A stretch of DNA of 64,000 nt, taken from the NCBI GenBank assembly GCA_946414805.1, contig CAMKPZ010000002.1, positions 302,617 to 366,616 on the forward strand, in the 5' to 3' direction. The notes beneath the pieces are model-generated. The model made no database searches and was not told the DNA's origin. It saw only the letters and a list, made by a program, of their open reading frames with translations. The stretch's first letter is position 1, and every line of letters starts with the position of its first letter. Position numbers and translations under genes: made by a program. Shown here piece after piece: positions 7,419 to 61,210 of this stretch. This DNA comes from an uncultured Bacteroidales bacterium (lineage in GTDB: Bacteria; Bacteroidota; Bacteroidia; Bacteroidales; Paludibacteraceae).

Positions 7419-8023
7419 GGATAATTGTCTTTGACCATATGGACCGGGCAACGGAGCAGGAAGTGGAGCGGATGCTGCCGCTCGTCTCTCCGCAGCGGCG
7501 GGAACAGGCGCTGCAATACAAACACACGCTGGGACGGTTCTGTTGCCTCAAATCATGGCTGATGCTCCGCGAACTGCTTGAGGAAAACGGGATGGAGATG
7601 AGTCCGTGGCAATATAACGGATACGGCAAACCCTTCCTGTCGAAGGGACCGTTCTTCAGTATCAGCCATTGCAAGGAAGCGGTCGCGGTAGCCCTGAGCG
7701 AAAACCCGATAGGGATTGATATAGAGGGAATACGGCACGTGGACGATTCCCTCGTTGAGCGGACTATGAACGGGGAGGAGCAGACATTGATCCGTGACTC
7801 AGCCGCGCCCGACAGAGCCTTCACACGCCTCTGGACACGGAAAGAAGCGATCCTCAAATGCAAAGGAACCGGCATCGGGGGCTTTGACTCCCTCCGCTCA
7901 TCCATAGCGGATTTTGAACAGGAGTACCGAAGTGTCAAAGCAGAGCTGAAGACGGAGGAAACCCCGGCCTATATTTATAGTTTATGCTCTGTGACTCGTT
8001 CCAAACACGTAAACGACACGTAA
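7415..8023 (+). CDS. 4'-phosphopantetheinyl transferase (Sfp type)
   Basis: Motifs GKPFL, FSISHCKEAVAVAL, GIDIE and WTRKEAILKCKG match the Sfp-type PPTase signature. Start overlaps the TolC-like stop. Confidence 0.8.
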   Translation: MRIIVFDHMDRATEQEVERMLPLVSPQRREQALQYKHTLGRFCCLKSWLMLRELLEENGMEMSPWQYNGYGKPFLSKGPFFSISHCKEAVAVALSENPIGIDIEGIRHVDDSLVERTMNGEEQTLIRDSAAPDRAFTRLWTRKEAILKCKGTGIGGFDSLRSSIADFEQEYRSVKAELKTEETPAYIYSLCSVTRSKHVNDT

Positions 8024-8037
8024 TCGACACGTAAACG
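8005..8037 (+). repeat. 11-bp tandem repeat x3 (ACACGTAAACG / ACACGTAATCG)
   Basis: Read directly. The PPTase stop codon TAA (8021-8023) lies inside unit 2. Confidence 0.9.
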
Positions 8038-8054
8038 AAAACTAACAACACAAT

Positions 8055-9788
8055 ATGGAAAATTACATTGTATCGGCGCGTAAGTACCGGCCGCAGACCT
8101 TTGAATCGGTAGTGGGGCAGCAGGCACTGACTCAGACGCTTCAGAATGCGATCCGCCAGAACCATCTGGCGCATGCCTATCTGTTCTGCGGTCCGAGGGG
8201 AGTGGGAAAAACCACTTGCGCGCGTATCTTCGCGAAGACGATCAACTGTCTCAATCCGCAGAACGGATACGACGCTTGCAACGAGTGTGAGTCCTGCAGG
8301 GCTTTCAATGAGCAGAGGTCGTTTAATATCCATGAACTGGATGCTGCCAGCAACAACTCGGTGGAGGATATTCGTTCGCTGATTGACCAGGTGAGGATTC
8401 CGCCACAGATCGGTAAATACTCGGTCTATATCATCGACGAGGTACATATGCTTTCGGCTGGAGCCTTCAATGCGTTGCTGAAAACGCTGGAGGAACCCCC
8501 TTCATATGCGATCTTTATTCTTGCTACCACCGAGAAGCACAAGGTGCTTCCTACGATCCTCAGCCGGTGCCAGGTCTATGATTTCAACCGTATTACGGTG
8601 CAGGACACAATCGCCCATCTCCAGTCGGTGGCTGCCAAAGAAGGGATCACGGTGAGCGAGGAGGCTCTGAATGTAGTGGCGCAGAAAGCGGATGGAGGAA
8701 TGCGCGACGCTTTGTCGATCTTCGACCAGTTGGTGGCATTCTGCGGTACGGATATCACGTATGAGCAGACGATTGCGGTACTCAATGTGCTCAATGTGGA
8801 TTATTATTTCTCGCTGGTGGAGAACGCGCTGAAACACGATGTGTCTGCGGCGTTGTTGCTCTTCAACGATGTGCTCAATCATGGTTTTGATGCCGGACAT
8901 TTCATTACAGGCTTTGCCCAGCATCTGCGCGATGTGCTGGTGTGCAAGGATCCGCAGACTGCCTCTCTGTTGGAGAGCAGTGACGCTATCAGGGCGCGAT
9001 ACACAACCCAGGCAACGCAATGCCATCCGCAATGGCTTTTCCTGGCGCTGGATATCATCAATACCTGCGATATCAACTACCGCACCGCGCGCAATAAACG
9101 CCTTACGGTGGAACTCGCCCTCGTTAAATTATGTCAATTGGGCGTACCGCAAGTGATCGCGCAAACGGCTCAGCCTGCACCTCAACCGAAGGCAGCCCCT
9201 CAACCGGTTACCGCTCCGCAGCCGCAGAGACCTGCGCCTCAACCAACGCCTGCGCCTCAACCCACGGCTGCACCGCAACCGAAGGCACCGACCGTGCAGG
9301 CGATCCCTAAGATGCCTAAGATCGGTCTGGGACTGGGGCCTAATCCGGTTCAACCGTCTGCACCGGCTTCTTCTGCCGAAGCGTCCGCTCCGGCACCTGC
9401 GGCATCGCAGGCTTCAATACCGAACGACCGCCCTTTTACGGCTGACCAACTCAAGGACGCGTGGGTTGGTCTGGCTGCTACTCATAAAGAGGAATTGCGT
9501 CTGAGGGAGTTGATTGAGACTTACACCCCGCGATTAATGGATGATCTGAACGCAGAGATACAAATGCCGAACCCCTGGCAGCTGTCGGAGATGCGGAAAG
9601 CACTGCCGACCTTGCTGAAGCAACTCAGGGCTGCGCTGCACAATGATCATCTTCAGATCCAACTGGTTCAGGCTGAATATAGTCAGGAGCAGATGGCTTT
9701 CACTGCGGAGGAGAAATATGCGCTGATGACGGAGCAGAACCCTGTGATCGCGCAACTGAAAGAACAACTGGATTTACAAATCGATTAG
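8055..9788 (+). CDS. dnaX: DNA polymerase III subunit gamma/tau
   Basis: Walker A GPRGVGKTT, DEVHML, SRCQ sensor, and Zn module CNECESC. Followed by a Pro/Ala/Gln-rich linker (QPAPQPKAAPQPVTAPQPQRPAPQP...). Confidence 0.95.
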   Translation: MENYIVSARKYRPQTFESVVGQQALTQTLQNAIRQNHLAHAYLFCGPRGVGKTTCARIFAKTINCLNPQNGYDACNECESCRAFNEQRSFNIHELDAASNNSVEDIRSLIDQVRIPPQIGKYSVYIIDEVHMLSAGAFNALLKTLEEPPSYAIFILATTEKHKVLPTILSRCQVYDFNRITVQDTIAHLQSVAAKEGITVSEEALNVVAQKADGGMRDALSIFDQLVAFCGTDITYEQTIAVLNVLNVDYYFSLVENALKHDVSAALLLFNDVLNHGFDAGHFITGFAQHLRDVLVCKDPQTASLLESSDAIRARYTTQATQCHPQWLFLALDIINTCDINYRTARNKRLTVELALVKLCQLGVPQVIAQTAQPAPQPKAAPQPVTAPQPQRPAPQPTPAPQPTAAPQPKAPTVQAIPKMPKIGLGLGPNPVQPSAPASSAEASAPAPAASQASIPNDRPFTADQLKDAWVGLAATHKEELRLRELIETYTPRLMDDLNAEIQMPNPWQLSEMRKALPTLLKQLRAALHNDHLQIQLVQAEYSQEQMAFTAEEKYALMTEQNPVIAQLKEQLDLQID

Positions 9789-26439: not shown

Positions 26440-28317
26440 ATGACTTTAGAACAACAGATAACCGCCCTTGTTAAAAACGCCGTCAAGGCGCTCTATGACC
26501 TTGATGCTACCGATGCGCAGATCCAGTTGCAGAAGACCCGTCCCGAGTTCGAAGGCAACATCACGCTTGTGGTCTTTCCTTTTGTCAAACTCGCCCGTAA
26601 GGCTCCGCAAGCCGTGGCGCAGGAGATCGGCGAAAAACTGAAGGCTGACGGCTCAGGGCTGATCGCCGAATTCAATGCCGTGCAGGGCTTCCTCAACCTC
26701 ACTGTCTCCGATGCGTTCTGGGTGGAGCAACTGAAAGCCATTGATGCCGACGGGCACTACGGCCGCTTCAAACACCCGAATGGTAAATGCCCGAATGGTA
26801 AATGTGAAAATGACCAAACGGTACATCCCTTGATGATGGTCGAGTACTCTTCGCCGAACACCAACAAACCGCTGCACCTCGGACACGTGCGTAATAATCT
26901 GCTCGGTTATTCGATCGCGAAGATCCAGGAGGCGAACGGATGGAACGTGGTCAAGACCAATATCGTCAACGACCGCGGCATCCATATCTGCAAATCCATG
27001 CTTGCGTGGCTCAAATACGGCAACGGCGAGACTCCGGAGACCTCCGGCAAGAAAGGCGATCACCTTATCGGCGATTACTACGTGCGTTTCGACAAGGAAT
27101 ACAAGGCGCAGATAGCCGAACTCATGGCTGCCGGAAAGGACGAAGAGACCGCTAAACGCGAGGCACCGCTGATGATCGAGGCACAGGAGATGCTCCGTAA
27201 ATGGGAAGCGAACGATCCCGAGGTACGCGCCCTCTGGGCGAAGATGAACGAGTGGGTCTATGCCGGTTTCGACGAGACTTACAAGCGCATGGGTGTCTCT
27301 TTCGATAAGATCTATTATGAGTCCAACACCTATCTGGAGGGCAAATCCGAAGTGGAGAAAGGTCTCGCTTCCGGTGCTTTCTACCGCCGCGAGGACGGAT
27401 CCGTCTGGGCGGATCTGACCAAGGACGGACTGGACGAGAAACTGCTCCTCCGCTCCGACGGCACCTCTGTCTATATGACCCAGGATATAGGTACCGCCAA
27501 ACTGCGGTTCCAGGATTACCCCATCGACAAGATGGTCTATGTGGTCGGCAACGAGCAGGAGTACCATTTCAAGGTGCTCTCTATTCTCCTTGACCGCCTC
27601 GGTTTCCCCTTCGGAAAAGAACTCGTGCATTTCTCCTATGGTATGGTCGAACTGCCGAACGGCAAGATGAAATCCCGCGAGGGTACGGTGGTGGACGCAG
27701 ACGATCTGATGGACAAGATGGTAGCCGACGCCAAGGAAATCTTCCTCCAGAAGTCTAACAGCGATAGCGGTCTAACAGCAAAGCGGTCTGTCAGCGACAG
27801 CGGTCTGTCAGGCGAAGCCGGTCTGACGAGCGATGACATCGCTCGTATGGTGGGTCTCGGCGCACTCAAGTACTTCATTCTCAAGGTTGATCCGCGTAAG
27901 AACATGCTCTTCAACCCCGCGGAGTCGATCGACTTCAACGGCAACACCGGACCGTTCATCCAATACACCTACGCCCGCATCCGTTCCGTCCTCCGCAAAG
28001 CGGAGGAAACCCTGGGAAATCTAGGAACCCTAGAAACCATAGAAACCCTGGATCCCAAAGAGCTCACCCTCATCCAGCGTTTGACGGAGTATCCGGCGGC
28101 GGTGCGTACTGCAGGCGATGAGTTCTCGCCGGCGGTCATCTGCAACTATGCCTATGCGCTGGCATGCGAGTTCAACTCTTTCTATCACGATCTGTCGATC
28201 CTGAACGAGCCCGATGAGCGAAAGAAATCGCTACGCTTGCTTTTGTCTGCAAACGTAGCGAAAGTGCTCCGCTCCGCTATGGCGCTGCTGGGCATTGAGA
28301 TGCCCGAGCGGATGTAA
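26440..28317 (+). CDS. argS: arginine--tRNA ligase
   Basis: HIGH-type motif PLHLGHVRN. KMKSREG (KMSKS equivalent). C-terminal anticodon-binding (DALR-like) region. Contains in-frame tandem-repeat insertions. Confidence 0.95.
   Translation: MTLEQQITALVKNAVKALYDLDATDAQIQLQKTRPEFEGNITLVVFPFVKLARKAPQAVAQEIGEKLKADGSGLIAEFNAVQGFLNLTVSDAFWVEQLKAIDADGHYGRFKHPNGKCPNGKCENDQTVHPLMMVEYSSPNTNKPLHLGHVRNNLLGYSIAKIQEANGWNVVKTNIVNDRGIHICKSMLAWLKYGNGETPETSGKKGDHLIGDYYVRFDKEYKAQIAELMAAGKDEETAKREAPLMIEAQEMLRKWEANDPEVRALWAKMNEWVYAGFDETYKRMGVSFDKIYYESNTYLEGKSEVEKGLASGAFYRREDGSVWADLTKDGLDEKLLLRSDGTSVYMTQDIGTAKLRFQDYPIDKMVYVVGNEQEYHFKVLSILLDRLGFPFGKELVHFSYGMVELPNGKMKSREGTVVDADDLMDKMVADAKEIFLQKSNSDSGLTAKRSVSDSGLSGEAGLTSDDIARMVGLGALKYFILKVDPRKNMLFNPAESIDFNGNTGPFIQYTYARIRSVLRKAEETLGNLGTLETIETLDPKELTLIQRLTEYPAAVRTAGDEFSPAVICNYAYALACEFNSFYHDLSILNEPDERKKSLRLLLSANVAKVLRSAMALLGIEMPERM
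26775..26804 (+). repeat. perfect 15-bp tandem duplication inside argS (CCCGAATGGTAAATG x2, encodes PNGKC-PNGKC)
   Basis: Read directly. Confidence 0.95.
27757..27830 (+). repeat. imperfect AGCGGTCTG-containing repeats inside argS (encodes SDSGL-type repeats; includes GCGAAGCCGGTCTG)
   Basis: AGCGGTCT at 27766, 27782 and 27799, and AGCCGGTCT at 27815. Confidence 0.75.
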
Positions 28318-28323
28318 GCGTCT

Positions 28324-30399
28324 TTAGTTCCGGAATTTCAGTTCGCCGTCCCTAAGTTCTACGATGATCGGTTTGCTCTGACTCACCTTGCCGGCGATGA
28401 TCGCTTTGCTCAGTTCGTTGAGTACCAGCCGTTGCAGGGCGCGTTTGACAGGCCGTGCGCCGAACTGCGGATCATACCCTTCTTTCGCGATATAATCGAT
28501 CGCGTCGTCCGTCACGCGCAGGTCGAAGCCTTCGCTCTCCAGCATCTTGTGGATTCTGCTTATCTGGAGCCCTACCACCGCGCGGATGTCGTCCTGACTC
28601 AGTTCGCTGAAATGGATGATCTCGTCGATTCGGTTTATAAACTCCGGTCGTACGGATGCCCGCAACTGCTCTTCCGTCAGATTGGAGGTCATGATGATGA
28701 GCGTGTTCTTGAAGTTCACCACCCGCCCCTTGTTATCCGTCAGACGGCCGTCGTCCAGCACCTGAAGTAGGACATTGAAGACATCCGGATGGGCTTTCTC
28801 TATCTCGTCGAAGAGCACAACCGAGTACGGTTTGCGCCGGATCGCTTCGGTCAGCTGTCCGCCTTCATCGTATCCTACGTATCCCGGAGGCGCACCGATC
28901 AGACGGGTGGCGCTGAATTTCTCCTGATACTCGCTCATGTCGATCCTCGTGATCATGTTCTCGTCGTCGAAGAGATAATCGGCGAGGGCTTTTGCCAGTT
29001 CGGTCTTACCGACGCCGGTGGTGCCGAGGAAGATGAAACTGCCGATCGGTCTTTTGGGATCCTGCAGTCCGGCACGGCTACGGCGGATAGCGTCGCTCAC
29101 CGCTTCGATCGCTTCGTTCTGACCGATGATGCGCTTATGCAGTTCTTCCTCCAGATGGAGCAGTTTGTCCCGCTCCGATTGCATCATTTTCGCTACCGGA
29201 ATACCCGTCCAGCGTGCCACTACTTCGGCTATATCGTCTTCGTCCACCTCCTCTTTGATGAGCGGAGAACTGACTGCTGATTGCTGATGGCTGAGGGCTT
29301 CCTGCGCCGCTTTGATATTCGTCTCCGCGGCAGGGATCCGGCTGTAACGGATCTCCGCCACCTTGCCGTAATCGCCTTCGCGCTCCGCTACCTCCGCCTC
29401 GTGTTTCATCTGCTCGATGAGCGCTTTCTCGTTCTGGATGGTGGCTACATAGCCTTTCTCCTTGTTCCACCGCGCGTTGAGTTCCTCGCTCTTGGCTTTG
29501 AGTTCTGTCAGCTGATTGCTGATGGCTGAAAGCTTCGCATCGTCCTTGTCCCGCTTGATCGCTTCGCGCTCGATCTCAAGCTGCTTGATCTGACGGTCCA
29601 GGCTGTCGATCTCTTCGGGTTTGGAGTCGACCTCCAGCCGCAGTTTGGCTGCTGCTTCGTCCACAAGGTCAATCGCTTTGTCCGGCAGGAACCGGTCGGT
29701 GATATACCGTGCGGAGAGGGTGACAGCCGCGATGATGGCATCGTCTTTGATACGCACTTTGTGGTGCGTCTCGTAGCGTTCTTTCAGCCCTCGCAGGATG
29801 GAGATCGTAGCCGCTTCGTCCGGCTCGTCCACCATCACTTTCTGGAACCGGCGCTCCAGCGCCTTGTCGGTCTCGAAATACTTCTGGTACTCGTCGAGCG
29901 TGGTTGCACCGATCGCTCTCAGATCGCCTCTTGCCAGAGCCGGCTTCAGGATGTTCGCTGCATCCATAGCGCCGCTGCTCTTTCCGGCACCTACCAGCGT
30001 GTGGATCTCGTCGATGAAGAGGATGATCTCGCCTGCGGCTGCCACTACTTCGTTCACCACGCCTTTGAGCCGCTCTTCGAACTCACCCTGGTATTTGGCA
30101 CCGGCGATGAGCGCACCCATGTCGAGGGAGTAGATCTGTTTCTTCTTCAGGTTCTCCGGCACATCCCCGCGTACGATACGGTGCGCCAGACCCTCGGCGA
30201 TAGCGGTCTTGCCGACACCCGGTTCACCGATCAGAATAGGGTTGTTCTTAGTTCTTCTTGACAGGATCTGCAGCACCCGCCGGATCTCATCGTCACGGCC
30301 GATCACCGGATCCAGTTTGCCCTCCCGAGCCCGCTCACACAGGTTGATCGCGAACTTCTTGAGGTTCTCATTGTTGTTTTGGTTGTTCGTTGCATTCAT
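28324..30399 (-). CDS. clpB: ClpB-type AAA+ disaggregase lacking the N-terminal (Clp_N) domain
   Basis: Two Walker A loops ([18 protein letters not shown]). Long coiled-coil middle domain. [24 protein letters not shown] aligns with the start of NBD1 in E. coli ClpB as I recall it. 691 aa versus about 860 for full-length ClpB. ATG at 30399. Confidence 0.9.
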
Positions 30400-30440
30400 A
30401 GTTGTATGTTGTTTGGTTAGTTAATTCCGTTATTCTCGGA

Positions 30441-30495
30441 AAGCAGACCGCTTCGCTGTGTTCTGTGCGCTGTGTTCTGTGTTCTGTGCACTGTT
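30441..30495. repeat. GCGAAGCGGTCTGCT core (minus strand) plus heptamer array x6 (GCTGTGT/TCTGTGC/TCTGTGT) in the spacer upstream of clpB
   Basis: Read directly. Confidence 0.85.
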
Positions 30496-30574
30496 TTCGA
30501 AGAATCGCTTTCACCCGTTAAACTACAAACGCCGTTCCAAATCCCTCAAGACTGACAAAATGGCAGTTCCTGTC

Positions 30575-31540
30575 TCAACGAACGAAGTCAGAGATATTAA
30601 ATGTGCCGCTGATGGTCTGTGCTTCCGCCTTGCCGGATAGCAGATCGAAGAAGAATGCGCGAATCTCATCGAAAGTCAGTTGCTTCGGTTTGCCTTCCGC
30701 GTCAGTTCCAAAATCATATGTGCGTAGCAGCTGCGGTCCGAGAGCAGCGGCGGTGAGCAGGAAATGGTTCTGGAACTTATCGTAATCCACGAGATCAGCA
30801 GCCAGCACTTTTCCTACCACAGTGTAGCTATATAATGTCTTCTGCATGTGCTCATCGGTAAGGGTAGTGCGGATGGCATCTACCTCCAGGTTCATCTCTA
30901 TACGCCCCGAATCGGCGGATTGCGGTAGGCCGCGGTACATGGATCCCAAATCCGCCAGACTGAGATTATACATCTTCGTGCCCGGAACATAATGGATTTT
31001 CTCCACGGAGAAAGCCGTTGGAAGCAGCATTTGGATAGTCCCTTCGATCTGTACGCTTGGCGCGTTAAACGTACCGATAATACAATTATTCATATCCACT
31101 GATTGTGTGGCGAAGATGCCTCCGATAACTATGCAGTTCTCCAGACTGATCTCGTCCGCATAAATACTACCGGCCACAAACGCGTTCACGAGCGCCACGC
31201 TCTTGGCATTGATATCCGAATGGAAAGACACCCGGCATTTTCGTGCGCGCGAGACAACGGAAGAAGATGAAGCCACGCATTTCCGGAAGTCGATAGCACC
31301 TTTTGCATCTGTGTTGATGTGTAGTTCGCGCTGCGTGAATACGGCACCCTCAAAACGCGCATCGCCGCTCTGGATCTCCATCTGCGCAGCGTACACCGGT
31401 CCTTCGATGACACTATCCTCCTGGATCGTTACGATGCGGGTTAACTCTGCGATCTTGTTCGGTAGAATACCGCCTTTTACCAAATTGCCATTGAGCAATA
31501 TATTTGTCTCATTGATATGAGTTTCTTTTAACTTTTTCAT
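30575..31540 (-). CDS. hypothetical protein, predicted beta-helical repeat N-terminal half (bactofilin-like?)
   Basis: Repeated short beta-strand/turn pattern (VIEGPVYAAQMEIQSGDARFEGAVFTQRELHI…ISLENCIVIGGIFATQSVDMNNCIIGTF). ATG at 31540 is 4 nt after the upstream stop. The track start at 31567 is a TTG. Confidence 0.6.
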   Translation of the reverse strand: MKKLKETHINETNILLNGNLVKGGILPNKIAELTRIVTIQEDSVIEGPVYAAQMEIQSGDARFEGAVFTQRELHINTDAKGAIDFRKCVASSSSVVSRARKCRVSFHSDINAKSVALVNAFVAGSIYADEISLENCIVIGGIFATQSVDMNNCIIGTFNAPSVQIEGTIQMLLPTAFSVEKIHYVPGTKMYNLSLADLGSMYRGLPQSADSGRIEMNLEVDAIRTTLTDEHMQKTLYSYTVVGKVLAADLVDYDKFQNHFLLTAAALGPQLLRTYDFGTDAEGKPKQLTFDEIRAFFFDLLSGKAEAQTISGTFNISDFVR

Positions 31541-31544
31541 ACTA

Positions 31545-32558
31545 TTACAGGGAATAAAGTTTTGCAATTAGTTTTTTTACACGTTGTTCGTGCTCGTTTG
31601 CGGGAGTGGTTTCGTTGAGCATGTCCTGAAAATAGACAGACACATTCTCTTTCTCCTCGTCCGTCATCTCCGGCAGTTTTGCAGCTTCAGCTTTGTCCGT
31701 CAACATGCGTTTCCGATCCTCGGGCAGCATATCGTTCATAAAGATTTTGCTGTACTGCACATTGTGGTCATTCGTCATTGATGCAAAGCAGACAGGCGTG
31801 TAGAAAGTGCGTTCCGAGTTGTCATTGAGTTTGCAATGAGTGAGTGTGATCTCGGTAGCCAGTTTTTTGGACAGAAAACCGTTGGCTTCATGGAGCGCCT
31901 TTTGGGCATGCGTTTTGGCAATGGCGGTGCCAATCTGGGCATCGAGTAAAGTATTCTCTTTACCGGATAGCGCCACGATGTTGAGCATATCGCTTTCCAT
32001 AAACCGGTCTTCTGCTGCGTACATGTTCGCTGCTGTCACAAAGACCGGTTGGTCTAAAGCATGCACGCGATTGTCCAATTCTTTATTCAAATCATTGAAT
32101 ATCGTTGCGTATTGCTGGGCTTTGCGATGATAATCGCGCTCCATCTGTTGTCGCAGGGCAGTCAATTTTTTTTGTGACTCATGCATATCCAGCAGCAGTG
32201 CTTCCACGCGTTTCTGCAGTTCTACAATCTGGTTTGAGATGTCGAACCGGATGGTCTTGAAGAACCCTTCCACTACGGTGTCACCGATTTGCTTTGCTTT
32301 TGCCTTGATGCTTGCCACTTGCGCGGTCTCTGTAGCGATTACGCTTGTCGTCAGGGCGTCCACATGGTTGTTACAAGTGGCTACACTACGGTCGAAAGGA
32401 ACCGTATCCACCTCGATATCCACTTCCACTTCTTCTACGGCAGTGCCGCTATAATGGGCAGTACCGCTACCTCCGCTTTGGGAAGGACCGTACGAGTACG
32501 AGACAGTTCCTGAGTAAGGAATGCGTATCGTTTTTCTGTATGTTTGTCTGTAACTCAT
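31545..32558 (-). CDS. hypothetical coiled-coil protein, paralog of 32570-33475
   Basis: Shares the block QMERDYxRxAQxYxxxFNxLNKELxxRVxxLDQPVF (25 of 37 identical) and an upstream VDTxP…helical region with the neighbouring gene. No family recognised. Confidence 0.7.
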   Translation of the reverse strand: MSYRQTYRKTIRIPYSGTVSYSYGPSQSGGSGTAHYSGTAVEEVEVDIEVDTVPFDRSVATCNNHVDALTTSVIATETAQVASIKAKAKQIGDTVVEGFFKTIRFDISNQIVELQKRVEALLLDMHESQKKLTALRQQMERDYHRKAQQYATIFNDLNKELDNRVHALDQPVFVTAANMYAAEDRFMESDMLNIVALSGKENTLLDAQIGTAIAKTHAQKALHEANGFLSKKLATEITLTHCKLNDNSERTFYTPVCFASMTNDHNVQYSKIFMNDMLPEDRKRMLTDKAEAAKLPEMTDEEKENVSVYFQDMLNETTPANEHEQRVKKLIAKLYSL

Positions 32559-32569
32559 AAGCCTGGGTT

Positions 32570-33475
32570 TTAGATCGTTTGATAGGGGGTGGCTTTATCC
32601 ATTAACTGTAGGATCGTTCGTTTGACACGCTCGGGAATTTCCGATTCGGTCATGATGCGTACAAATTCGTTTTGCACATTCTCGTTTTTTGCCGCCTCAT
32701 GCCATGGCATAGAAGCCGCAGCTTGCATGAGTTCTCCTCGGATGAGTGAAGTGTTCTGATCGGATAGCAGCGCCTCACAGCTCGTCACTTTTGCAGACGC
32801 TCCCTGCTCAAAGCAACGCTCGGAGATTACTACCGGCATGTACAGTACTTTCGTCTCTGCTTTCTGATTGGAGAGGAGAATACGATTGGTCAATTCCTTC
32901 TGTTCCTCCATGCTCCCTACGAAAGACTGCGCGGCCTCAAGTACCTGAATGCCATGGTATTTGACATTCGATGCGAGGATCCGCTGTGCGTCCGTCACGC
33001 TCTCTGTCTGCCCGACAGGAATAGTGGCAGTAAGAGCGGTCATTCGGTTGTTGATCGTTTCCACTTCTGTCGTTGCGAACCGGAACACAGGTTGGTCCAA
33101 CTCCTGTACGCGCTGGCGCAATTCTTTATTAAGGGAATTAAACGTTTTGGTGTATCGTTGGGCAGTACGCATGTAATCGCGTTCCATCTGCCGCTTGATA
33201 TTCAGCAACTGCTTCGTCTGTTGGTTCAGCCGCATCAAATGCGAGTCCACTTCGCTCTGCAGTTTTGCAATCTTCTGCGACAGCGTAGAACTCATCAGCG
33301 CGTGGAAACCCCGGTTCACATCCTTGCAAACCTGATTGGCGGCTTCTTGATCCGCCTTGATGACTGCGGCCTGCATTGCTACTACTGCAGTGGTCGTGCC
33401 GGTGACATGTCGGCTGACAGAATGCAGCTCGTCGGCCATCGGTTGAGTATCAACTCTACAATCTATATATTGCAT
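32570..33475 (-). CDS. hypothetical coiled-coil protein, paralog of 31545-32558
   Basis: See the paralog entry. 11-nt spacers on both sides. Confidence 0.7.
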   Translation of the reverse strand: MQYIDCRVDTQPMADELHSVSRHVTGTTTAVVAMQAAVIKADQEAANQVCKDVNRGFHALMSSTLSQKIAKLQSEVDSHLMRLNQQTKQLLNIKRQMERDYMRTAQRYTKTFNSLNKELRQRVQELDQPVFRFATTEVETINNRMTALTATIPVGQTESVTDAQRILASNVKYHGIQVLEAAQSFVGSMEEQKELTNRILLSNQKAETKVLYMPVVISERCFEQGASAKVTSCEALLSDQNTSLIRGELMQAAASMPWHEAAKNENVQNEFVRIMTESEIPERVKRTILQLMDKATPYQTI

Positions 33476-33486
33476 AATACCCTCCT

Positions 33487-35778
33487 TTATTCATTGGTTT
33501 CATCCTCGGAAAGGACTTCTACTGTGGCTCCTAACTCCCGCAGAGCATCTGCAAAGGCATTGGCTTCTTCTTCGGTCAATCCGTCGCAAACAACCTCCGG
33601 CGCCGCATCGGCAATGTCTTTGGCTTCTTTGAGACCGGTGCCTAACCATTCTTTCAGTTCCTTCACAATAGATAATTTGTTAGGTCCTGCATCCTGGAGG
33701 AAGACCGTGTATGTACGATCCTCTTCTTCCTCTTCTTCCTCTTCTTCCTCTTCCTCTTCTTCCTCTTCTTCTTCCTCCTCCTCTTCCTTTTCTTCTTGGA
33801 TATCTTCCTCTTCATCTTGCAGTTCCTCTTCTTGCAGTTCCTCTTCTTGCAGTTCCTCTTCTTGCAGTTCCTCTTCTTGGAGTTCTTCCTTTTGCGAGAG
33901 TTCTTCCTCCTCCGGAATTTCCGGCTCTAACTCCTGATTCTCGGTAGCCGTTAACTCATCCAGCGCATTCTTTGCAATCATCGGCAGGTTCAGAGACAAG
34001 TGGTCAAAAACGATATCTTCCACCTGCGGGGTAGGTGGCAAGTCGGATTTTTTTGCCAGCAGAGGGTTCACGGCAGTCAGCGATTTGCGGCGGTCTTCCA
34101 TCTCACGGACTTCATTCGCGGCAATAGCCAACTCGTTGGAATGACCGTCTTGTAAACGTGCATCAAAATATTCGATATGTCCAAACTCCTCAGCACGCGT
34201 GTCAATATCTTCTTTCAGACGATCCATGTAATCCTCAAAATCATTCTGGACCTGCTCAAACTGTTTCGCCTGGGTCTCGAAAGCCAGCAGAGATTCGGCA
34301 CTATTGTCTTCAACAGATACAATACCGCTCTCAAGATCCTGGGATTGATTCATCGATTGCTGGGTTTTCTGCAACTGCACCAGCGTATTATACGCGGCTA
34401 CGTATTCACGCAGACTGCCCTGCATCAAGTTGATCAAATCAGCCGATTGTGCACGGTTGGACAGGTAGAAGTTGTCAGTGTCCTGATGCCATTTGTTGAG
34501 GTAAGAGAGTTTCTGGTCTTTAATATGATTATAGATCTTCAAACGCTCAATGCGGTTCTCCTGCATGAGTTTCTCTACCATTGGTGCTACAATCTCTTCG
34601 TAAATCTGGTGTACACCGAACGGCATAGTAGTCAAACTGCCGTCTTCCGCAGTCCATTGGTCGGTAATGAGGTTATAACGGACGCGTGAACTTTGCCGGA
34701 GCGTGAAAGGCTGATATCCCTGAACGGAATCCGAATAATCGAATTTCTCGTCGCGGATTCGTTGGATCTCTTCGGCTTCTAAAAGCGGAGAATAGTGGTT
34801 GTAGGGTGCCTTCAGAATCTTATAAAGAAGACTGTTCGAGGCGTTAACCAGCTTGTCCGTGCTTGATAATTTCAGCATGGAGATTGTTTGTACCGAGGTA
34901 GCCATTGTTTTCATGAGATCTTTCAGAACATCTTCGAATTGTTCGCTCTCGTTGCTTAGCGAGTCCTTGAGTTTATTAAGTTCCTCAAACTTGGCAATGT
35001 CGTCATTGTACTGGTCTTTATCGAAGATAGGTAGTACTATGGCATTTTTAGGCAGTTGCGAGGTGGTGTACTCATTGATATTCGCCAGACGGCTGCTATC
35101 GTCCGATACCAGCGGCAGCGAAACGGACGATGTGTCCAGATCATTCATGCAGTATGAAATGGTGCGCAACGAGCGATCCAGTTTACCGAAATAGTCATTC
35201 TGGTAAATCTCCTGCATAGAGAGCGAATATTCGTCGGTCTCCACCGCTTCGGCTTCATTGGAGGTCTCCACTATCGGTGCTTCCGTATTCAACTGCTTGA
35301 TCTCCTCAATGGTGTTGCATAGCAGTTCATTCTGACGGCTCATCTGCAGTGTGACTTGGGATTTAGGCACCTGACCTGTGTAATCAACGATAAAACTCTT
35401 GTCTTCATATTTGATTTGGTCCGCAATCGGTACGTAAACGACACCGAGTTTGTTCACCTTGTAGTCGCGGAATATCTCTTCGTGCTGCTTGCGGAATTCT
35501 CCGATGCGTGTTTGCAGGTCCGCTATCTGTTTCTTGTACTTGTTCTTCCGCACCCAATACATGAAAAACAGTATAATGGTGAAAAACCATTTCCAGCAGT
35601 TGGAAGCCTGTGCTTCGATATCACGTTGCTTGGATTCAAGGGAAGCGATCTCTTTCTCTATGCGCTCCTCCTCGTGTACAATCCGCTCTGCGGCTTGCTG
35701 ATAATACGAGAACAATACCTTGGCTTCATCCTGGTAGATATTGCTCGATTCTTGAAAAATTTTACCTGTAGTTGCCAT
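33487..35778 (-). CDS. membrane-anchored coiled-coil protein with poly-acidic linker and C-terminal ribosomal L7/L12 C-terminal-domain-like module
   Basis: 763 aa. One TM helix (CWKWFFTIILFFMYWV) after an N-terminal coiled coil. Long helical middle. EEELQ x5 and poly-E tract. C-terminus is YTVFLQDAGPNKLSIVKELKEWLGTGLKEAKDIADAAPEVVCDGLTEEEANAFADALRELGATVEV. Confidence 0.8.
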   Translation of the reverse strand: MATTGKIFQESSNIYQDEAKVLFSYYQQAAERIVHEEERIEKEIASLESKQRDIEAQASNCWKWFFTIILFFMYWVRKNKYKKQIADLQTRIGEFRKQHEEIFRDYKVNKLGVVYVPIADQIKYEDKSFIVDYTGQVPKSQVTLQMSRQNELLCNTIEEIKQLNTEAPIVETSNEAEAVETDEYSLSMQEIYQNDYFGKLDRSLRTISYCMNDLDTSSVSLPLVSDDSSRLANINEYTTSQLPKNAIVLPIFDKDQYNDDIAKFEELNKLKDSLSNESEQFEDVLKDLMKTMATSVQTISMLKLSSTDKLVNASNSLLYKILKAPYNHYSPLLEAEEIQRIRDEKFDYSDSVQGYQPFTLRQSSRVRYNLITDQWTAEDGSLTTMPFGVHQIYEEIVAPMVEKLMQENRIERLKIYNHIKDQKLSYLNKWHQDTDNFYLSNRAQSADLINLMQGSLREYVAAYNTLVQLQKTQQSMNQSQDLESGIVSVEDNSAESLLAFETQAKQFEQVQNDFEDYMDRLKEDIDTRAEEFGHIEYFDARLQDGHSNELAIAANEVREMEDRRKSLTAVNPLLAKKSDLPPTPQVEDIVFDHLSLNLPMIAKNALDELTATENQELEPEIPEEEELSQKEELQEEELQEEELQEEELQEEELQDEEEDIQEEKEEEEEEEEEEEEEEEEEEEEEEDRTYTVFLQDAGPNKLSIVKELKEWLGTGLKEAKDIADAAPEVVCDGLTEEEANAFADALRELGATVEVLSEDETNE
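33490..33711 (-). other. L7/L12 C-terminal-domain-like module (domain of the 763-aa protein)
   Basis: By-eye alignment to E. coli L7/L12 CTD (recalled as [67 protein letters not shown]) gives about 28 of 67 identical positions, including AGxNK, GxGLKEAKD, AP and GAxVEV. Confidence 0.8.
33719..33890. repeat. GAA/GAG-rich tract plus 15-bp tandem repeat x5 (33816-33890) encoding the poly-E and EEELQ linker
   Basis: CTTGCAGTTCCTCTT x4 perfect plus one diverged unit, read directly. Confidence 0.9.
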
Positions 35779-35798
35779 TCTTCTATAAGGTTAATGTG

Positions 35799-36497
35799 TT
35801 AATTCATTATTTGTTTGCGTTGCGCGAGGGTGCGCTCCAGACGGGCTATCAGCGCGTGAATTTCCTGCTCTTCCGTCTTCCTGTGCGGAAGGGCGATTGC
35901 AATCTCATGAGCGAGGCGTATAAACTGTTGCTCCAGTTCTACCGCTTCTTGTTTGTCAGAAGGCGTTATATATCGCAATTGGTCTGTGATTCCGTTCAGG
36001 GCACTGCGGATATCCGCCGGGATGTCCGTTCCGTCGGCTAAAGCGTTCTGTAGCTGGTCCACTACTTTTTTCATCTGCTCTCGACCGGCCAAGGCGTTTT
36101 TCTCTTGCGCTGCTACAGCGCTGGCTTTATGCCCTGCAGCCGTACTGAAGACCCAGGCAAAGAGCAGAATCCCCAGCAATCCTCCTTGTCCCAGAACCTG
36201 GTATATAAAGGCGCATTCATATATGCCGGCAGCCACGCCGAACCCAACGGCCAGTACCATGTATGCTAATTGCCCCTGCCAGCGGATACCTATACTTGCT
36301 ACTTCCGGCGCATGATCGCTATCGCTGATGATCGGGCAATATAGATCATAGCAGATAAGCGCCCAAATGATACTTAGCACTACCGTGTCTAAGATCATTA
36401 TATCTTGTGCCAAACCATGAGGCAGCAGAAGCATCGCACTAATGATGAAGGCTTCACCTAAAAGTGCGAGAAGGGAGGTTAAAATAATTCGTTTCAT
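35799..36497 (-). CDS. hypothetical 4-TM membrane protein with cytoplasmic helical C-terminal domain
   Basis: Four hydrophobic helices in residues about 5-125, then a roughly 100-aa helical tail (…QEKNALAGREQMKKVVDQLQNALADG…ARLERTLAQRKQIMN). No family recognised. Confidence 0.7.
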   Translation of the reverse strand: MKRIILTSLLALLGEAFIISAMLLLPHGLAQDIMILDTVVLSIIWALICYDLYCPIISDSDHAPEVASIGIRWQGQLAYMVLAVGFGVAAGIYECAFIYQVLGQGGLLGILLFAWVFSTAAGHKASAVAAQEKNALAGREQMKKVVDQLQNALADGTDIPADIRSALNGITDQLRYITPSDKQEAVELEQQFIRLAHEIAIALPHRKTEEQEIHALIARLERTLAQRKQIMN

Positions 36498-36524
36498 GAT
36501 AATAGGAGTGTTAAAATGTCAGTT

Positions 36525-37772
36525 TTATCTGCGTTGACCACAAACGGGACAGAACTTATCCCGAGGCTGTAACTGTGCTCCGCAGCGGCTGCATACATTC
36601 TCGTCGGCTATCGGCGCACGTGAGCCGAAAGAACCTGCTGCCAGCGGAGTGCCGCAGGATACACAGCGTCTGGCATGATCGGCGTTGTCCGTTCCGCATC
36701 TGGGGCAGGGATTGTATTTATGGCCGCAATGAGGGCAAAAGGCCTGATTGGATTTATATTTCTTTGAGCAAGCCCCGCAATATATATCGCGTACTACGGC
36801 GGCATTCCCGGCATCTATCAATCCGGCGGCATTAGCGTTTCCGGAACCGCCCATTGCAGGCTGATTATAGGCAGGCTGCATCATCCCTGCTCCTACACCG
36901 CCCATTCCTCCTGCCATTCCGCTCATCATCTGGACAGCCATCAATCCGCCTAACAATCCACCGCCGTTTCCTCCCATGTTGCTGAAACCGTCGATGGCAT
37001 TATTCGCGGTGCCAAACAGCTGTTCCTGCTGCCATGTGCGACCCGTGATCTTCTGGGCTGCCTGCTGTGAGATGGCCTCGGCTATTTGTCGACCTTCCGC
37101 TGTCGTCTTATCGATCTCTATTGAATTGACATAGAATTTCGTCAACTCCAAGCCCATATTGGTCCAGAAAGGAGCCAACTGTAGTTGCAGATCAGCACTA
37201 AGCCTGTCTAAGAATGCGGAGATCTGCATGAAGCCGATTTTATTTATCAGCATGTATTGCAAAATCAGTGATTTCGCTTTCGAGCAAATTTCTCCGTATG
37301 ACTGATTGGTCATATTTTCTTCGGTGAAGGTGTAATGAGTTCCTACAAAATTGATGATGAATTTCTCTGTATCCACAATCCGGAGACCATATTGCCCCAT
37401 TGCTATCAATGGCAGTTGCGTTTTGTAATCCTCGTCGAAATAGGGAAGACCTGTCAGACTCCAGTCAATGGCAAAGGTCTGTATTTTATTTACAAACCAT
37501 ACTTCGGCGGTGAAGGGATTCTCTCCCCCGAATGGAAATCCATACAATGTACGTAGGATAGGTAAGTTTTCTGTCTTTAACTGGTGTTTCCCCGGACCGA
37601 ATTTACCGATCAATTGCCCTTTTGAGAATAATAAAGCCTCCTGGCTCTCATGTACCAGCAGTTGCGTAGCGGTAGACAGGTTACGCTCGGGATGGTGATA
37701 CGCATAAATCACTTCATCTCCCTGCGGCTGCCATTGTACGACATCAATGATTGGTTTGCTAAATAATCCCAT
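36525..37772 (-). CDS. SPFH-domain protein (COG4260/YdjI-like) with Gly/Met-rich linker and three C-terminal zinc ribbons
   Basis: N-terminus MGLFSKPIIDVVQWQPQG… and the following ~270 aa resemble the virion-core-protein-like SPFH family. Linker GGNGGGLLGGLMAVQMMSGMAGGMGGVGAGMM. Ribbons CGACS-x11-CPHCG, CPRCG-x10-CVSCG, CSRCG-x10-CPVCG. ATG at 37772 (track start 37817 is non-ATG). Confidence 0.75.
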   Translation of the reverse strand: MGLFSKPIIDVVQWQPQGDEVIYAYHHPERNLSTATQLLVHESQEALLFSKGQLIGKFGPGKHQLKTENLPILRTLYGFPFGGENPFTAEVWFVNKIQTFAIDWSLTGLPYFDEDYKTQLPLIAMGQYGLRIVDTEKFIINFVGTHYTFTEENMTNQSYGEICSKAKSLILQYMLINKIGFMQISAFLDRLSADLQLQLAPFWTNMGLELTKFYVNSIEIDKTTAEGRQIAEAISQQAAQKITGRTWQQEQLFGTANNAIDGFSNMGGNGGGLLGGLMAVQMMSGMAGGMGGVGAGMMQPAYNQPAMGGSGNANAAGLIDAGNAAVVRDIYCGACSKKYKSNQAFCPHCGHKYNPCPRCGTDNADHARRCVSCGTPLAAGSFGSRAPIADENVCSRCGAQLQPRDKFCPVCGQRR

Positions 37773-37814
37773 AGTAGTATTAAGAATTAGATTGAGTATT
37801 AGTATTAGACGCCG

Positions 37815-37846
37815 CAAAATTACTATTTTTTTATGAATTATGCAAA
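37815..37846 (-). promoter_or_regulatory. Bacteroides-type promoter of the SPFH/L12-fusion operon
   Basis: On the minus strand: TTTG (37846-37843), 20-nt spacer, TAATTTTG (37822-37815). The -7 box is 42 nt upstream of the ATG at 37772. Confidence 0.7.
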
Positions 37847-37894
37847 TTTTATCTATATTTTTTTTGCGATACTCTTTTCCGGTAGGTACAACAA

Positions 37895-37921
37895 CAAAAA
37901 AAAGAGACCTTGTTGGTCTCT
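37895..37921 (-). terminator. rho-independent terminator after tRNA-Val
   Basis: Minus strand reads AGAGACC-AACAA-GGTCTCT followed by a run of T. Confidence 0.75.
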
Positions 37922-37927
37922 TTCTTG

Positions 37928-38002
37928 TGGGCGTTTACGGATTCGAACCGCAGACCCTCTGCTTGTAAGGCAGATGCTCTAAACCAGCTGAGCTAAACGC
38001 CC
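37928..38002 (-). tRNA. tRNA-Val (anticodon UAC)
   Basis: Cloverleaf read by hand: GGGCGTT-TA-GCTC-AGCTGGTTTA-GAGC-A-TCTGC-CTTACAA-GCAGA-GGGTC-TGCGG-TTCGAAT-CCGTA-AACGCCC-A. 75 nt, no encoded CCA. Confidence 0.93.
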
Positions 38003-38043: not shown

Positions 38044-38075
38044 CAAAGGTACTGCTTTTTTTTGACATGACCAAA
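38044..38075 (-). promoter_or_regulatory. Bacteroides-type promoter of tRNA-Val
   Basis: Minus strand: TTTG (38075-38072), 20-nt spacer, TACCTTTG (38051-38044). About 40 nt upstream of the tRNA 5' end. Confidence 0.7.
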
Positions 38076-58580: not shown

Positions 58581-58629
58581 AATTCTCAATTCTCAATTCT
58601 CAATTCTCAATTCTCAATTCTCAATTAAT
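58581..58629. repeat. heptamer tandem array x7 (AATTCTC)
   Basis: Read directly. Contains the stop of the TonB-receptor-like gene (58625-58627). A separate copy, TTCGTAATTCTCAAT, carries the PorT-like TTG start (58557-58559). Confidence 0.95.
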
Positions 58630-61210
58630 AGTCGCTGCTGCTATTTCCGCTATCGTCGAAATCATCGCTTCCGCCCATTGAGCTATCGCCTTTGTCCGGA
58701 CGGCGTTTACCTGTCTGGTTACCGAAGTTATAGGTCAGTGTCAGACTGATGGTACGGCTGTGCCATCTGTTCTCGCTGAACTGCCAGAAGCCGTCTCCCC
58801 AAGTGGTGTTACGCCTTGCGCGGCTGTCCAGAAGATCGCGTACATTGAGCGCCAGCGCCAGCTGTTTGTTGAGGAAAGTATGGCGCAAGCCTATATCTAT
58901 CGAATAACTGTGACTCGTCGTACCCTGTGCCACTACGCGCGGAGAGCGGTAGTTCGCGGAGATCTGACCGCTGAAATTCTTGGTGAAGAGGAACTGTGCG
59001 TTCACGCGTACAGAGCCTGCAAGAATGTTCTGTTGCGGCAGGTTTACCGGAATCTCCGTTCCCTGGTAGAGAATCGTCTGATCCACTTTCGCTACATTGT
59101 TCCAATAGAAGTTGGCAGAGGTGGTCAGTTGCAGTACTTCGCCGAAGAGACGGTTCTTGGCTACCACCTCAACACCTAACTCCTGTCTTGTGGCTACATT
59201 GAGATAGGTGTTTTTCATTACTGCCTTAGTAGGGTCGGACTGGTCGTAATTATCCATATATTTGACATTCTGCACTGCGCCTTCGCGGTATTTCCAGAAG
59301 ACCCCTGCGGAAAGGGTGTGGCGCTCCCAGGTCTTGAGGTAGTTGAGTTCCAGATTATTGGAGTATGCCGGTAACAGATCTACGTTACCGAAGCTGATGT
59401 TCGTGCTATCGGAGAAATCCATGCGCGGGTTGATCTGGTGTCCCCACGGACGGTTCACACGCCTTGTGTAGTTGAGCTGAAGCTCATGTCCGTTGCCGAA
59501 ATCATAACTGATATACGCACTCGGGAAGATCTGGAAATACGAGGTGTCTTTCTTGTTGGGGAAGGCGGCGTAAGAGTCTTGCACCGTGCCGCTCTCATCC
59601 TTGTAGAAGGACTCCAGATGGCGCGAATAATACTCTCCGCGCAGACCTACCTGGATCGACAGTTTGTCCCAGAAGCGGTTGCCGTACGTGATATACAGAG
59701 CGTGGTTCTGGGTCAAGCCCCGGAAATCCGTGTAGTATGCAGGTAGCTCGGTAGAGATGCCATCCTTGATATTATGTGCGTCCGCGAGACTGTTGCTCCA
59801 TCCGCGCGTATAGTCGTATCCGGCTTCCAAGCGGCTCTGCGGAGTCGGTTTCCATTCATAGTCCGCCTTGATCTCCATACTCTGCTCCTTGCTTCGGTTG
59901 CTCTGGTCTTGATAGGTGGTGTCATACCGGTCGGTCAGCAAGTCCCTGTCCGCCTGTGTGTAGTCGGTGAACTGGTTGAAGCCGAAGTTATTATAGGTAC
60001 CGCTGACGATGAGTTGGTGCTCGTCCAGTTTGAAGGTATAGTCGATGGTGGCATTGCCTCCCGGGTGCGAACCGGAGCCGCTCTGGTCACGCGTGTAATC
60101 GCGCATGACAGTACCGTCCGGAGCGGTCAGCAGGTAGGTGCGGTGGTTGGTGTTGGTCATCTTGAAGACATTCGGATCGCTCACCATTCCGAATCCGGAC
60201 ACACCGAGCGTATGCCCTTCCGCGAGACGGAAATTGAGTCCGGCTCTTGCGAACATACCTCCTCCGCGATGGGTCTGCAGACCTTCCTGCACCAGATGGC
60301 TCTGGATCAACGAACTGTCCAATGCCTGTTCGCCTGTGCCGCTCAGGTTATACCGGTCGGTCTTGCTGCCGCCGTTGCTTATATGATAGCGGTACCCCAC
60401 ATTGAAATAACCATCCACGGGGCCTGCGTTGAAGTTGATATTAAAGCCTACGTTCGCTCCGGGAGGTACATTCCACGGCGACGCCAGCGCGTAGTTCAGA
60501 CCGGCTTGCACCGAACCGTAATATCCGGCGGATCGGTCTTTTTTCATCACCAGATTGATAATACCAGATGTGCCTTCGGGGCTGAACTTGGCGGAGGGAT
60601 TGGTGATGACTTCTATCTTCTCGATCGTACCTGCGGGCATCTGCTGGAGCACCTGTCCTCTGTTCTCGGAATTGAGTCCTGCGGGCTTGCCGTTGATCCA
60701 GATCTCGACATCCTCGCTGTTACGCAGGCTGATCGTACCTTCCTGATCGACATCCACGGAAGGGATGTTCTCGAGTACATCGGTAACGGACGCACCTGCG
60801 GAAGCGATATTCTGATCAACGGTGAAGACTTTCTTGTCGAGTTCAAAGCGCATGGATGATCCTTGTCCGACCACCTCTACATCCTGCAGCACCTGAGTAT
60901 CTTCCTTGAGCTGTATACGCCCTACGTTGAGCGGTTTGCCGGAGACTGTGATCTCCTTGCGGCTCTCGCTGTAGCCCATGAAGGAAACAACAATCGTGTA
61001 TTGTCCGTCCTTGAGGTCCAATGCGAACGCGCCCGTGGCATCGGTGATGGTACCGGTCAAGGGAGCCGTTTCTCCGTTTTTAAGGACACTGACATTCGCA
61101 AAATCGATGGCTTGCTTTGTGCCGAAGTCAACCACCTTACCTGTTACTTGCGCGGCAAACAAACCGACCGTCAGTAACAAGAGCGAAATAACACTACTTA
61201 ATCGTTTCAT
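58625..61210 (-). CDS. TonB-dependent-receptor-like outer membrane protein with carboxypeptidase-regulatory-like N-domain
   Basis: Signal peptide. VTGKVVDFGTKQAIDFANVSVL… (CarbopepD_reg-like). Plug-like region, then a long beta-barrel pattern. Confidence 0.75.
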   Translation of the reverse strand: MKRLSSVISLLLLTVGLFAAQVTGKVVDFGTKQAIDFANVSVLKNGETAPLTGTITDATGAFALDLKDGQYTIVVSFMGYSESRKEITVSGKPLNVGRIQLKEDTQVLQDVEVVGQGSSMRFELDKKVFTVDQNIASAGASVTDVLENIPSVDVDQEGTISLRNSEDVEIWINGKPAGLNSENRGQVLQQMPAGTIEKIEVITNPSAKFSPEGTSGIINLVMKKDRSAGYYGSVQAGLNYALASPWNVPPGANVGFNINFNAGPVDGYFNVGYRYHISNGGSKTDRYNLSGTGEQALDSSLIQSHLVQEGLQTHRGGGMFARAGLNFRLAEGHTLGVSGFGMVSDPNVFKMTNTNHRTYLLTAPDGTVMRDYTRDQSGSGSHPGGNATIDYTFKLDEHQLIVSGTYNNFGFNQFTDYTQADRDLLTDRYDTTYQDQSNRSKEQSMEIKADYEWKPTPQSRLEAGYDYTRGWSNSLADAHNIKDGISTELPAYYTDFRGLTQNHALYITYGNRFWDKLSIQVGLRGEYYSRHLESFYKDESGTVQDSYAAFPNKKDTSYFQIFPSAYISYDFGNGHELQLNYTRRVNRPWGHQINPRMDFSDSTNISFGNVDLLPAYSNNLELNYLKTWERHTLSAGVFWKYREGAVQNVKYMDNYDQSDPTKAVMKNTYLNVATRQELGVEVVAKNRLFGEVLQLTTSANFYWNNVAKVDQTILYQGTEIPVNLPQQNILAGSVRVNAQFLFTKNFSGQISANYRSPRVVAQGTTSHSYSIDIGLRHTFLNKQLALALNVRDLLDSRARRNTTWGDGFWQFSENRWHSRTISLTLTYNFGNQTGKRRPDKGDSSMGGSDDFDDSGNSSSDY

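Follow-up and report, generated by a model that had tools for sequence, protein, structure and literature searches.

The stretch of DNA analysed here—hereafter the window—comprises 64,000 nucleotides (nt) of contig CAMKPZ010000002.1 (assembly GCA_946414805.1) from an uncultured Bacteroidales bacterium of the Paludibacteraceae, and carries on its minus strand six tightly packed genes, here called A to F, whose order is kept elsewhere and which form one operon. A preliminary description, made from the sequence letters and a list of open reading frames (ORFs), had singled these genes out as a candidate uncharacterised membrane-associated system with coherent features. The reading frames and gaps were exactly as it had stated: the genes run from 37772 down to 30575 and are separated by 27, 20, 11, 11 and 4 nt, the corresponding medians over 62–76 loci being 19, 21, 14, 6 and 11 nt. 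Orthologues of F measure 321–325 amino acids (aa), and Met10 of its longest ORF was therefore taken as the first residue. The operon and its upstream boundary comprise the following features.

37815–37846, minus strand: Bacteroides-type promoter, read directly from the sequence, with a −33 element TTTG (37846–37843), a 20-nt spacer and a −7 element TAATTTTG (37822–37815)
36525–37772, minus strand: gene A, 415 aa, a soluble SPFH protein (Band_7_1) with a Gly-rich linker and C-terminal zinc ribbons
35799–36497, minus strand: gene B, 232 aa, with four hydrophobic segments (aa 3–122) and a helical cytoplasmic C-terminal half
33487–35778, minus strand: gene C, 763 aa, whose core (aa 1–610) is very conserved and mostly helical and is followed by an acidic linker and an L7/L12 end
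35548–35598, minus strand: putative membrane anchor of C (aa ~61–77), the aromatic-rich hydrophobic stretch CWKWFFTIILFFMYWV, read from the sequence
33712–33942, minus strand: poly-acidic low-complexity tether of C (aa 613–689), 77 residues, 68% Asp and Glu
33514–33711, minus strand: ribosomal L7/L12 C-terminal domain of C (aa 690–755), found by Pfam, phmmer and Foldseek
32570–33475, minus strand: gene D, 301 aa, helical, made up of a helix of ~137 residues, another helix and, at the C terminus, a small alpha/beta domain
31545–32558, minus strand: gene E, a 337-aa paralogue of D with an N-terminal extension of ~45 aa
30575–31540, minus strand: gene F, 321 aa, with a bactofilin-like beta-helix (aa ~60–151) and a highly conserved C-terminal domain
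37927–38002 (gene) and 37926–37898 (terminator), minus strand: tRNA-Val, the upstream boundary, from gene and terminator scans

The canonical promoter that had been reported directly after the tRNA-Val terminator was likewise recovered. A motif scan for TTTG-N17–23-TAnnTTTG gave one match on the minus strand from 28000 to 38000, at the promoter of gene A; the second match in the scan, at 38044–38075, lies upstream of the tRNA-Val gene. The promoter lies 52 nt past the tRNA-Val hairpin terminator. At 37 of 73 related loci, the 200 nt ahead of gene A contain a TAnnTTTG element, the background being 0.09 such elements per 200 nt.

The six-gene arrangement is kept well beyond this strain. When one genome per species was scanned, 221 species matched, and 79 loci were fetched from Bacteroidales, Marinilabiliales and Capnocytophaga. 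Essentially all fetched loci on a long enough contig kept the order A-B-C-D-E-F, which was found in Dysgonomonas and one other genome as well. Identity to the window proteins across loci was 58–91% for C, 54–88% for F—the second most conserved member after C—41–83% for A, 40–84% for D, 33–81% for E and 26–60% for B, the least conserved. Homologues of C make up more than 2,000 sequence clusters, of which all named ones belong to Bacteroidota, with carriers in gut, rumen, oral, termite and freshwater habitats. The family is narrow: at 50% identity, 1.84 billion representatives contain ~350 clusters of it. Literature searches returned no description of the six-gene operon. The operon is real, widespread in Bacteroidota and without a described function.

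Inspecting the surroundings of the fetched loci revealed flanks that are unrelated from one locus to the next (561 ORFs falling into 454 clusters). A Pfam scan of 149 sampled flank ORFs, drawn from ~37 loci, returned 178 families, none of them dominant and the commonest, zinc-ribbon proteins, accounting for five ORFs. Identity among C proteins conflicts with taxonomy: Capnocytophaga C is 78% identical to that of some Bacteroidales, and Segatella C ~61% to that of other Bacteroidales. Given unrelated flanks and a similarity that does not follow taxonomy, the six genes appear to behave as a self-contained, autonomous cassette that moves horizontally among Bacteroidota. The GC content of the cassette is 48.3%, as compared to 52–53% in its flanks. 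Plasmid and phage collections yielded no homologue of C by tblastn, and PHROGs no match. A tRNA gene as the integration site was considered and rejected, with a tRNA lying within ~1 kb at two of 60 related loci scanned (L036 and L019). One pair of loci stood out, namely L015 (‘Bacteroidales bacterium CF’, a complete genome) and L016 (a metagenome-assembled genome (MAG) labelled Prolixibacteraceae), whose C cores are 100% identical and whose tails differ by one residue, which suggests either one organism or a mislabelled or mis-binned MAG.

A metagenome scan was seeded with divergent C homologues. It recovered cassettes in which C is 37–52% identical to its counterpart in the window and C-D-E-F still occur in order. 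Gene A was present at 33 of the 54 metagenome loci with enough upstream sequence. At 19 loci of a human-gut clade (L095–L123 and others, largely from human-gut metagenomes), A and B are replaced by one 567-aa Sel1 protein (for example L096, 8258–9961), consisting of a helical N-domain, a Pro/Glu-rich acidic linker, one hydrophobic segment that probably spans the membrane, a Pro-rich linker and a Sel1 repeat. At L094, C-D-E-F stand alone, with neither A nor B upstream. Because C-D-E-F are kept where A and B are replaced or lacking, these four genes are the invariant core of the cassette, and its membrane partner is exchangeable.

At some loci, further genes adjoin the cassette. Directly upstream of C-D-E-F at L094, an ORF on the opposite strand (7995–8963) resembles DNA methyltransferases and contains a DPPY motif. 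In Dysgonomonas (L001, 3559–7919), Sel1 and WG-repeat proteins are encoded just upstream of gene A. In a Rikenellaceae MAG (L024, 15331–16560), the gene immediately behind F codes for a second, distant SPFH–zinc-ribbon protein that shares 23% identity with A.

Profile and structure searches with the individual products largely agreed with the earlier observation that five of them belong to no nameable family: five of the six are without a family above curated thresholds, and neither Pfam nor NCBIfam identified an NTPase or recognisable enzyme domain in A–F. Protein A matched Pfam Band_7_1 (2.9e-33) as well as Zn_Ribbon_1 and DZR (1e-14 to 1e-16), has no hydrophobic segment by hydropathy and, in most loci, is encoded by the 5’-most gene of the cassette. 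Protein B, with its four hydrophobic segments by hydropathy, matched no family in Pfam, NCBIfam, PADLOC or PHROGs. D and E are paralogues (hhalign probability 100%, E = 1e-49, 295 columns). AlphaFold modelled D with confidence (predicted local distance difference test score, pLDDT, 80) as two helices, one of them spanning 137 residues, together with a small alpha/beta domain; the model had no PDB match below E = 1 in Foldseek, and the D profile found no PDB sequence. Nothing was returned for E in Pfam or in a PDB profile search, or for either paralogue in NCBIfam or PHROGs. F matched Pfam Bactofilin (PF04519) at 1.7e-4, with 22 bits against a threshold of 27.9, and the same sub-threshold match recurred in 18 of 27 F orthologues; in IMG, orthologues of F carry the label ‘CcmA (bactofilin family)’. 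PDB sequence profile searches with C, D, E and F gave nothing significant, the weak match of F to BacA (2N3D) having E = 0.41.

In protein C, the L7/L12 domain was matched by Pfam Ribosomal_L12 (1.3e-17, 66 of 67 positions covered) and aligned without gaps to E. coli L7/L12 (phmmer, 3e-12), with the GLKEAKD motif intact. As modelled, this end domain (pLDDT ~90) was matched by Foldseek to 1CTF with a template modelling (TM) score of 0.94 and 42% identity, and the NCBIfam model of full-length L12 aligned over its positions 51–124 only (49 bits versus a cut-off of 84). AlphaFold rendered C as a whole poorly (pLDDT 54), with a core of long helices, and Foldseek recovered the L7/L12 domain only. 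Profile searches with the core gave no match in Pfam, NCBIfam, PADLOC, PHROGs or PDB, and a candidate D/E-like domain inside C was rejected by hhalign (probability 0.1%). The anchor stretch at aa ~61–77 fails a Kyte–Doolittle hydropathy cut-off of 1.7. Divergent C homologues possess clear hydrophobic, apparently membrane-spanning stretches at the anchor position, some together with an N-terminal zinc ribbon, and it is from these homologues that we infer membrane attachment of C. Closer inspection of aa 320–435 (window ~34470–34820) revealed many invariant His, Asp and Glu residues in the short motifs PYNHYSP, FGVHQIYEEIVAP, YNHIKDQK and NKWHQDTD; these might form a metal or ligand site, which would be ill-fitting for a purely structural role.

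In contrast to the constant core, the tail of C varies from 6 to 271 aa among orthologues and is acidic in nearly all of them beyond a short stub. It ends in an L7/L12 domain, a ~45-residue motif, zinc ribbons (L079, L080), a proline-rich or basic amphipathic stretch, or in none of these. The ~45-residue motif is helical and occurs in many lineages, with Pfam matching Rho_N in three orthologues. As for the L7/L12 module, it is found in the window's clade and absent from most orthologues, many orthologues being without any end module; it recurs in at least three clades, being present also in P0103 (Alistipes-like) and P0258 (divergent, 859 aa). A Paludibacteraceae MAG (L007, 10838–11650) encodes a C with two tandem L7/L12 domains separated by a short acidic spacer. 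In these sequences, the L7/L12 domain is one of several interchangeable end modules of C, recurrent but not universal. Coupling to the translation GTPases, which had been put forward as a property of the system, therefore does not extend to it as a whole, the L7/L12 domain being one of several alternative ends and many orthologues having none.

For the window protein itself, the presence of the module has a more specific implication. The C-terminal domain of L12 is the docking site of translational GTPases on the ribosomal stalk. Together with the binding helices of L12, which we take to underlie the predicted interaction, this makes binding of translational GTPases by the window's C plausible. 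The last 66 residues of C correspond to the full C-terminal factor-binding domain of bL12, GLKEAKD helix included. C differs from bL12 in having no N-terminal dimerisation and L10-binding domain, in its length (763 versus ~120 aa) and in carrying the domain on a 77-residue acidic linker of a 690-residue, putatively membrane-associated protein. In the literature searched, we came across no account of a membrane-associated protein that bears a ribosomal stalk domain at the end of a long acidic tether.

Among characterised systems, the closest analogue of the cassette is the envelope-stress system PspA–SamGHI (YdjGHI) of Bacillus subtilis. YdjI combines an SPFH domain with zinc ribbons, as does A (PMC11237479), and this protein, also known as SamI, is a cytosolic SPFH protein that is recruited by membrane proteins; at the membrane, it stabilises foci formed by a helical polymer (PMC8581546; bioRxiv 10.64898/2026.02.06.704340). 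The likeness lies in A, which is soluble and joins a Band_7_1 SPFH domain to C-terminal zinc ribbon(s), and in the placement of the SPFH gene in one operon with membrane proteins and long helical proteins. However, Pfam gave no PspA_IM30 or Snf7 match in A–F at E ≤ 0.1, no partner of the YdjG type (zinc ribbons, an NTF2-like domain and a transmembrane segment) is found among A–F, and a TPM-domain YdjH is lacking, B and C giving no TPM or related match in Pfam or NCBIfam. Moreover, the invariant C-D-E-F has no counterpart in Bacillus, and one clade does without the SPFH gene. The comparison with Bacillus YdjI and PspA drawn in the preliminary description thus stands for gene A and falls for the rest, where no PspA, YdjG or YdjH equivalent exists and where A and B are replaced in a clade; the cassette may ‘work like’ PspA–SamGHI, with A alone qualifying for membership.

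Two further groups of membrane-associated proteins share features with single members of the cassette. F resembles bactofilins (BacA, CcmA) in its weak but recurrent beta-helix match, from which polymerisation is predicted, and differs from them in its sub-threshold score and in an additional, highly conserved C-terminal domain of ~170 aa without a family. As in SPFH–NfeD, flotillin and HflK/C systems, the SPFH gene adjoins a gene for a small multi-pass membrane protein. Unlike in these, A belongs to the Band_7_1 branch without a transmembrane anchor and four further conserved genes follow; Pfam found no NfeD match in B or in the other products.

The claim of a coherent, uncharacterised membrane-associated multi-gene system is supported by these results, and we propose—giving this reading an even chance of being correct—that A–F is a horizontally spreading accessory cassette which most likely encodes a structural assembly located at the inner membrane, on its cytoplasmic side. 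In this assembly, C would be held in the membrane by a short hydrophobic hairpin that leaves both of its ends in the cytoplasm, D and E would pair into a long helical rod, and F would polymerise through its bactofilin-like beta-helix. B would recruit the soluble SPFH protein A, in the way known from Bacillus subtilis, where SamG and SamH do so for their SPFH partner SamI (YdjI), and A would oligomerise and corral the assembly. The acidic tether may serve as a flexible line whose end module binds cytoplasmic partners. Because the end module in this genome is an intact L7/L12 C-terminal domain, these partners would probably be the translational GTPases of the ribosomal stalk. The role of such an assembly could lie in membrane maintenance, in the local organisation of translation or elsewhere.

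Several observations weigh against the proposed assembly. As A and B are lacking in one clade, SPFH scaffolding is not essential to the function of the core. The core of C could not be modelled with confidence, a transmembrane helix would usually be longer than the hydrophobic stretch of C, and the many invariant His, Asp and Glu residues of the core would allow for an enzymatic role. D was considered as a relative of PspA or ESCRT-III and rejected, for want of any Foldseek match below E = 1, and the bactofilin match of F is below threshold. Finally, a patchy distribution and such high sequence conservation make an unusual pair.

A bolder reading, which we hold to be possible if somewhat unlikely, is that C-D-E-F constitutes an undescribed, non-enzymatic, polymer-based platform beneath the membrane, whose poly-acidic tether with swappable modules would capture translation factors, ribosomes or nucleic acids. 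If true, such a platform could organise translation locally, or it could belong to a new type of defence, in which it would mimic the stalk as a decoy or sensor. The chance that C-D-E-F is categorically new is a real one. The C core, B, D and E are without a counterpart in Pfam, NCBIfam, PADLOC or PDB, despite the number of clusters in the C family. A stalk domain on a tether could reveal a route by which translation factors are brought to the membrane, and cultured carriers—Capnocytophaga, Dysgonomonas, Segatella hominis and Barnesiella—make the cassette directly testable.

We also considered that A–F might serve in defence against phages or mobile elements, as a membrane-bound sensor–effector in which the variable tail modules would be baits or sensors and activation would lead to membrane damage or translation shutdown. 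An abortive-infection role of this kind had been suggested before; we judge it unlikely. The cassette is accessory, patchy, horizontally transferred and self-contained, its GC content is below that of the flanks, and protein C is constant apart from a diversifying end module, all of which would suit defence. So would the occasional mobile-element or toxin neighbours (integrases in three and HipA in two of the 149 flank ORFs, and the DNA methyltransferase-like gene at L094) and the fact that the L12 stalk is a known docking site of the defence nuclease Cami1 (PDB 8PHJ, among the Foldseek matches). However, a search of PADLOC-DB v2 gave no match for A, C and F, and for B, D and E only weak ones (E ≥ 3.5e-5), which fall in helical parts of DruC, ZorA and LeoBC and which we put down to coiled-coil composition. 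The PADLOC check thus found no credible match for A–F, nor any defence family recurring in the flanks: within this sample, which does not amount to a formal enrichment test, any one PADLOC model matched at most two of the 149 ORFs (~37 loci), and the top-ranked matches, to DpdF, are probably two DEAD-box helicases that Pfam also detects. Pfam and NCBIfam revealed no nuclease, NTPase, protease or pore-forming domain in A–F, C and F are 54–91% identical across orders—far above what is typical of defence proteins—and the phage and plasmid collections held no C homologue.

The recurrent bactofilin signal of F, the second most conserved member, opens another explanation, namely a bactofilin-based cytoskeleton or positioning device that would act in cell shape, in placing the division site or an envelope machine, or in an internal compartment, with the SPFH protein as an optional organiser and the tail modules as incidental. 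D and E as long helical proteins, the lack of enzymes and a very high conservation, which fits structural proteins with many contacts, would all agree with such a device. Yet a patchy distribution and transfer between orders would be odd for a morphogenetic system, and Pfam linked no cell-wall enzyme or ParA-like partner to the cassette among the 149 flank ORFs. We regard this explanation, too, as improbable, in the same measure as a role in defence.

The structural assembly at the membrane that we propose covers A–F and ends with gene F. The preliminary description had extended the system to the gene that follows on the same strand, a clpB, and the features bearing on this extension are given below.

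30400–30574, minus strand: intergenic region between F and clpB, with an imperfect palindrome ACTGCCATTTTGTCAGT (30551–30567) and short CACAGAAC-type repeats (~30455–30497)
28324–30399, minus strand: clpB without an N domain, 691 aa, judged to lie outside the module
L004 9928–10123, L005 7521–7643 and L006 15242–15363: regions upstream of clpB in relatives

That this ClpB lacks its N domain is correct: the protein aligns to TIGR03346 from position 146 to 852 (1142 bits, just under the cut-off), and the ORF cannot be extended upstream. Matches to AAA, AAA_lid_9, AAA_2 and ClpB_D2-small account for two AAA+ modules, the middle domain and the D2-small domain, and the short form is also found at L004–L006 (685 aa). 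As a candidate for a full-length ClpB, an 861-aa ORF at 58625–61210 was rejected, being a TonB-dependent receptor. The 175-nt gap was equally as reported, with scans of the window finding neither a TAnnTTTG motif nor a terminator in it. Beyond the window, clpB follows F at three of ~80 genome loci (L004–L006), which belong to the nearest relatives (C 91% identical). At L004, a terminator composed of a GC-rich hairpin and a T-run stands directly after F; at L005 and L006, this place is taken by the perfect palindrome ACTGCCAATTTGGCAGT and a T-run. A palindrome and a TTTGTAG(G/T)TT block are kept upstream of clpB in the window and at L004–L006 despite differing gap lengths, and this region could be an operator or promoter of clpB or a decayed terminator. 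The GC content of clpB is 56.6%, as compared to 48.3% for the cassette.

A unit of seven genes, with ClpB, lacking its N domain, as the remodeller of the polymers and with a link between membrane scaffold and translation GTPases as the core mechanism, is therefore highly improbable and largely refuted by the comparative data: in its favour, clpB lies on the same strand 175 nt downstream of F, across a gap in which the scan saw no terminator or TAnnTTTG, and the L7/L12 fold resembles that of ClpS, which binds Clp N domains, but clpB is found behind F in the nearest relatives only, L004 has a terminator after F, the four genomes share sequence upstream of clpB, the GC content of clpB is 8 points off that of the cassette, the L7/L12 module is missing from most orthologues, and the domain in C is 42% identical to L7/L12 versus ~14% to ClpS. 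ClpB is thus an independent neighbour outside the conserved unit, with read-through from the operon possible in this strain, and its removal as a false lead leaves C-D-E-F as the core to study.

Elsewhere in the window, on the minus strand between 38784 and 46635, several large proteins in a row, with domains of the types IgGFc_binding, PKD and OmpA, are encoded upstream of a PAP2 gene; these genes look like a cluster for cell-surface proteins.

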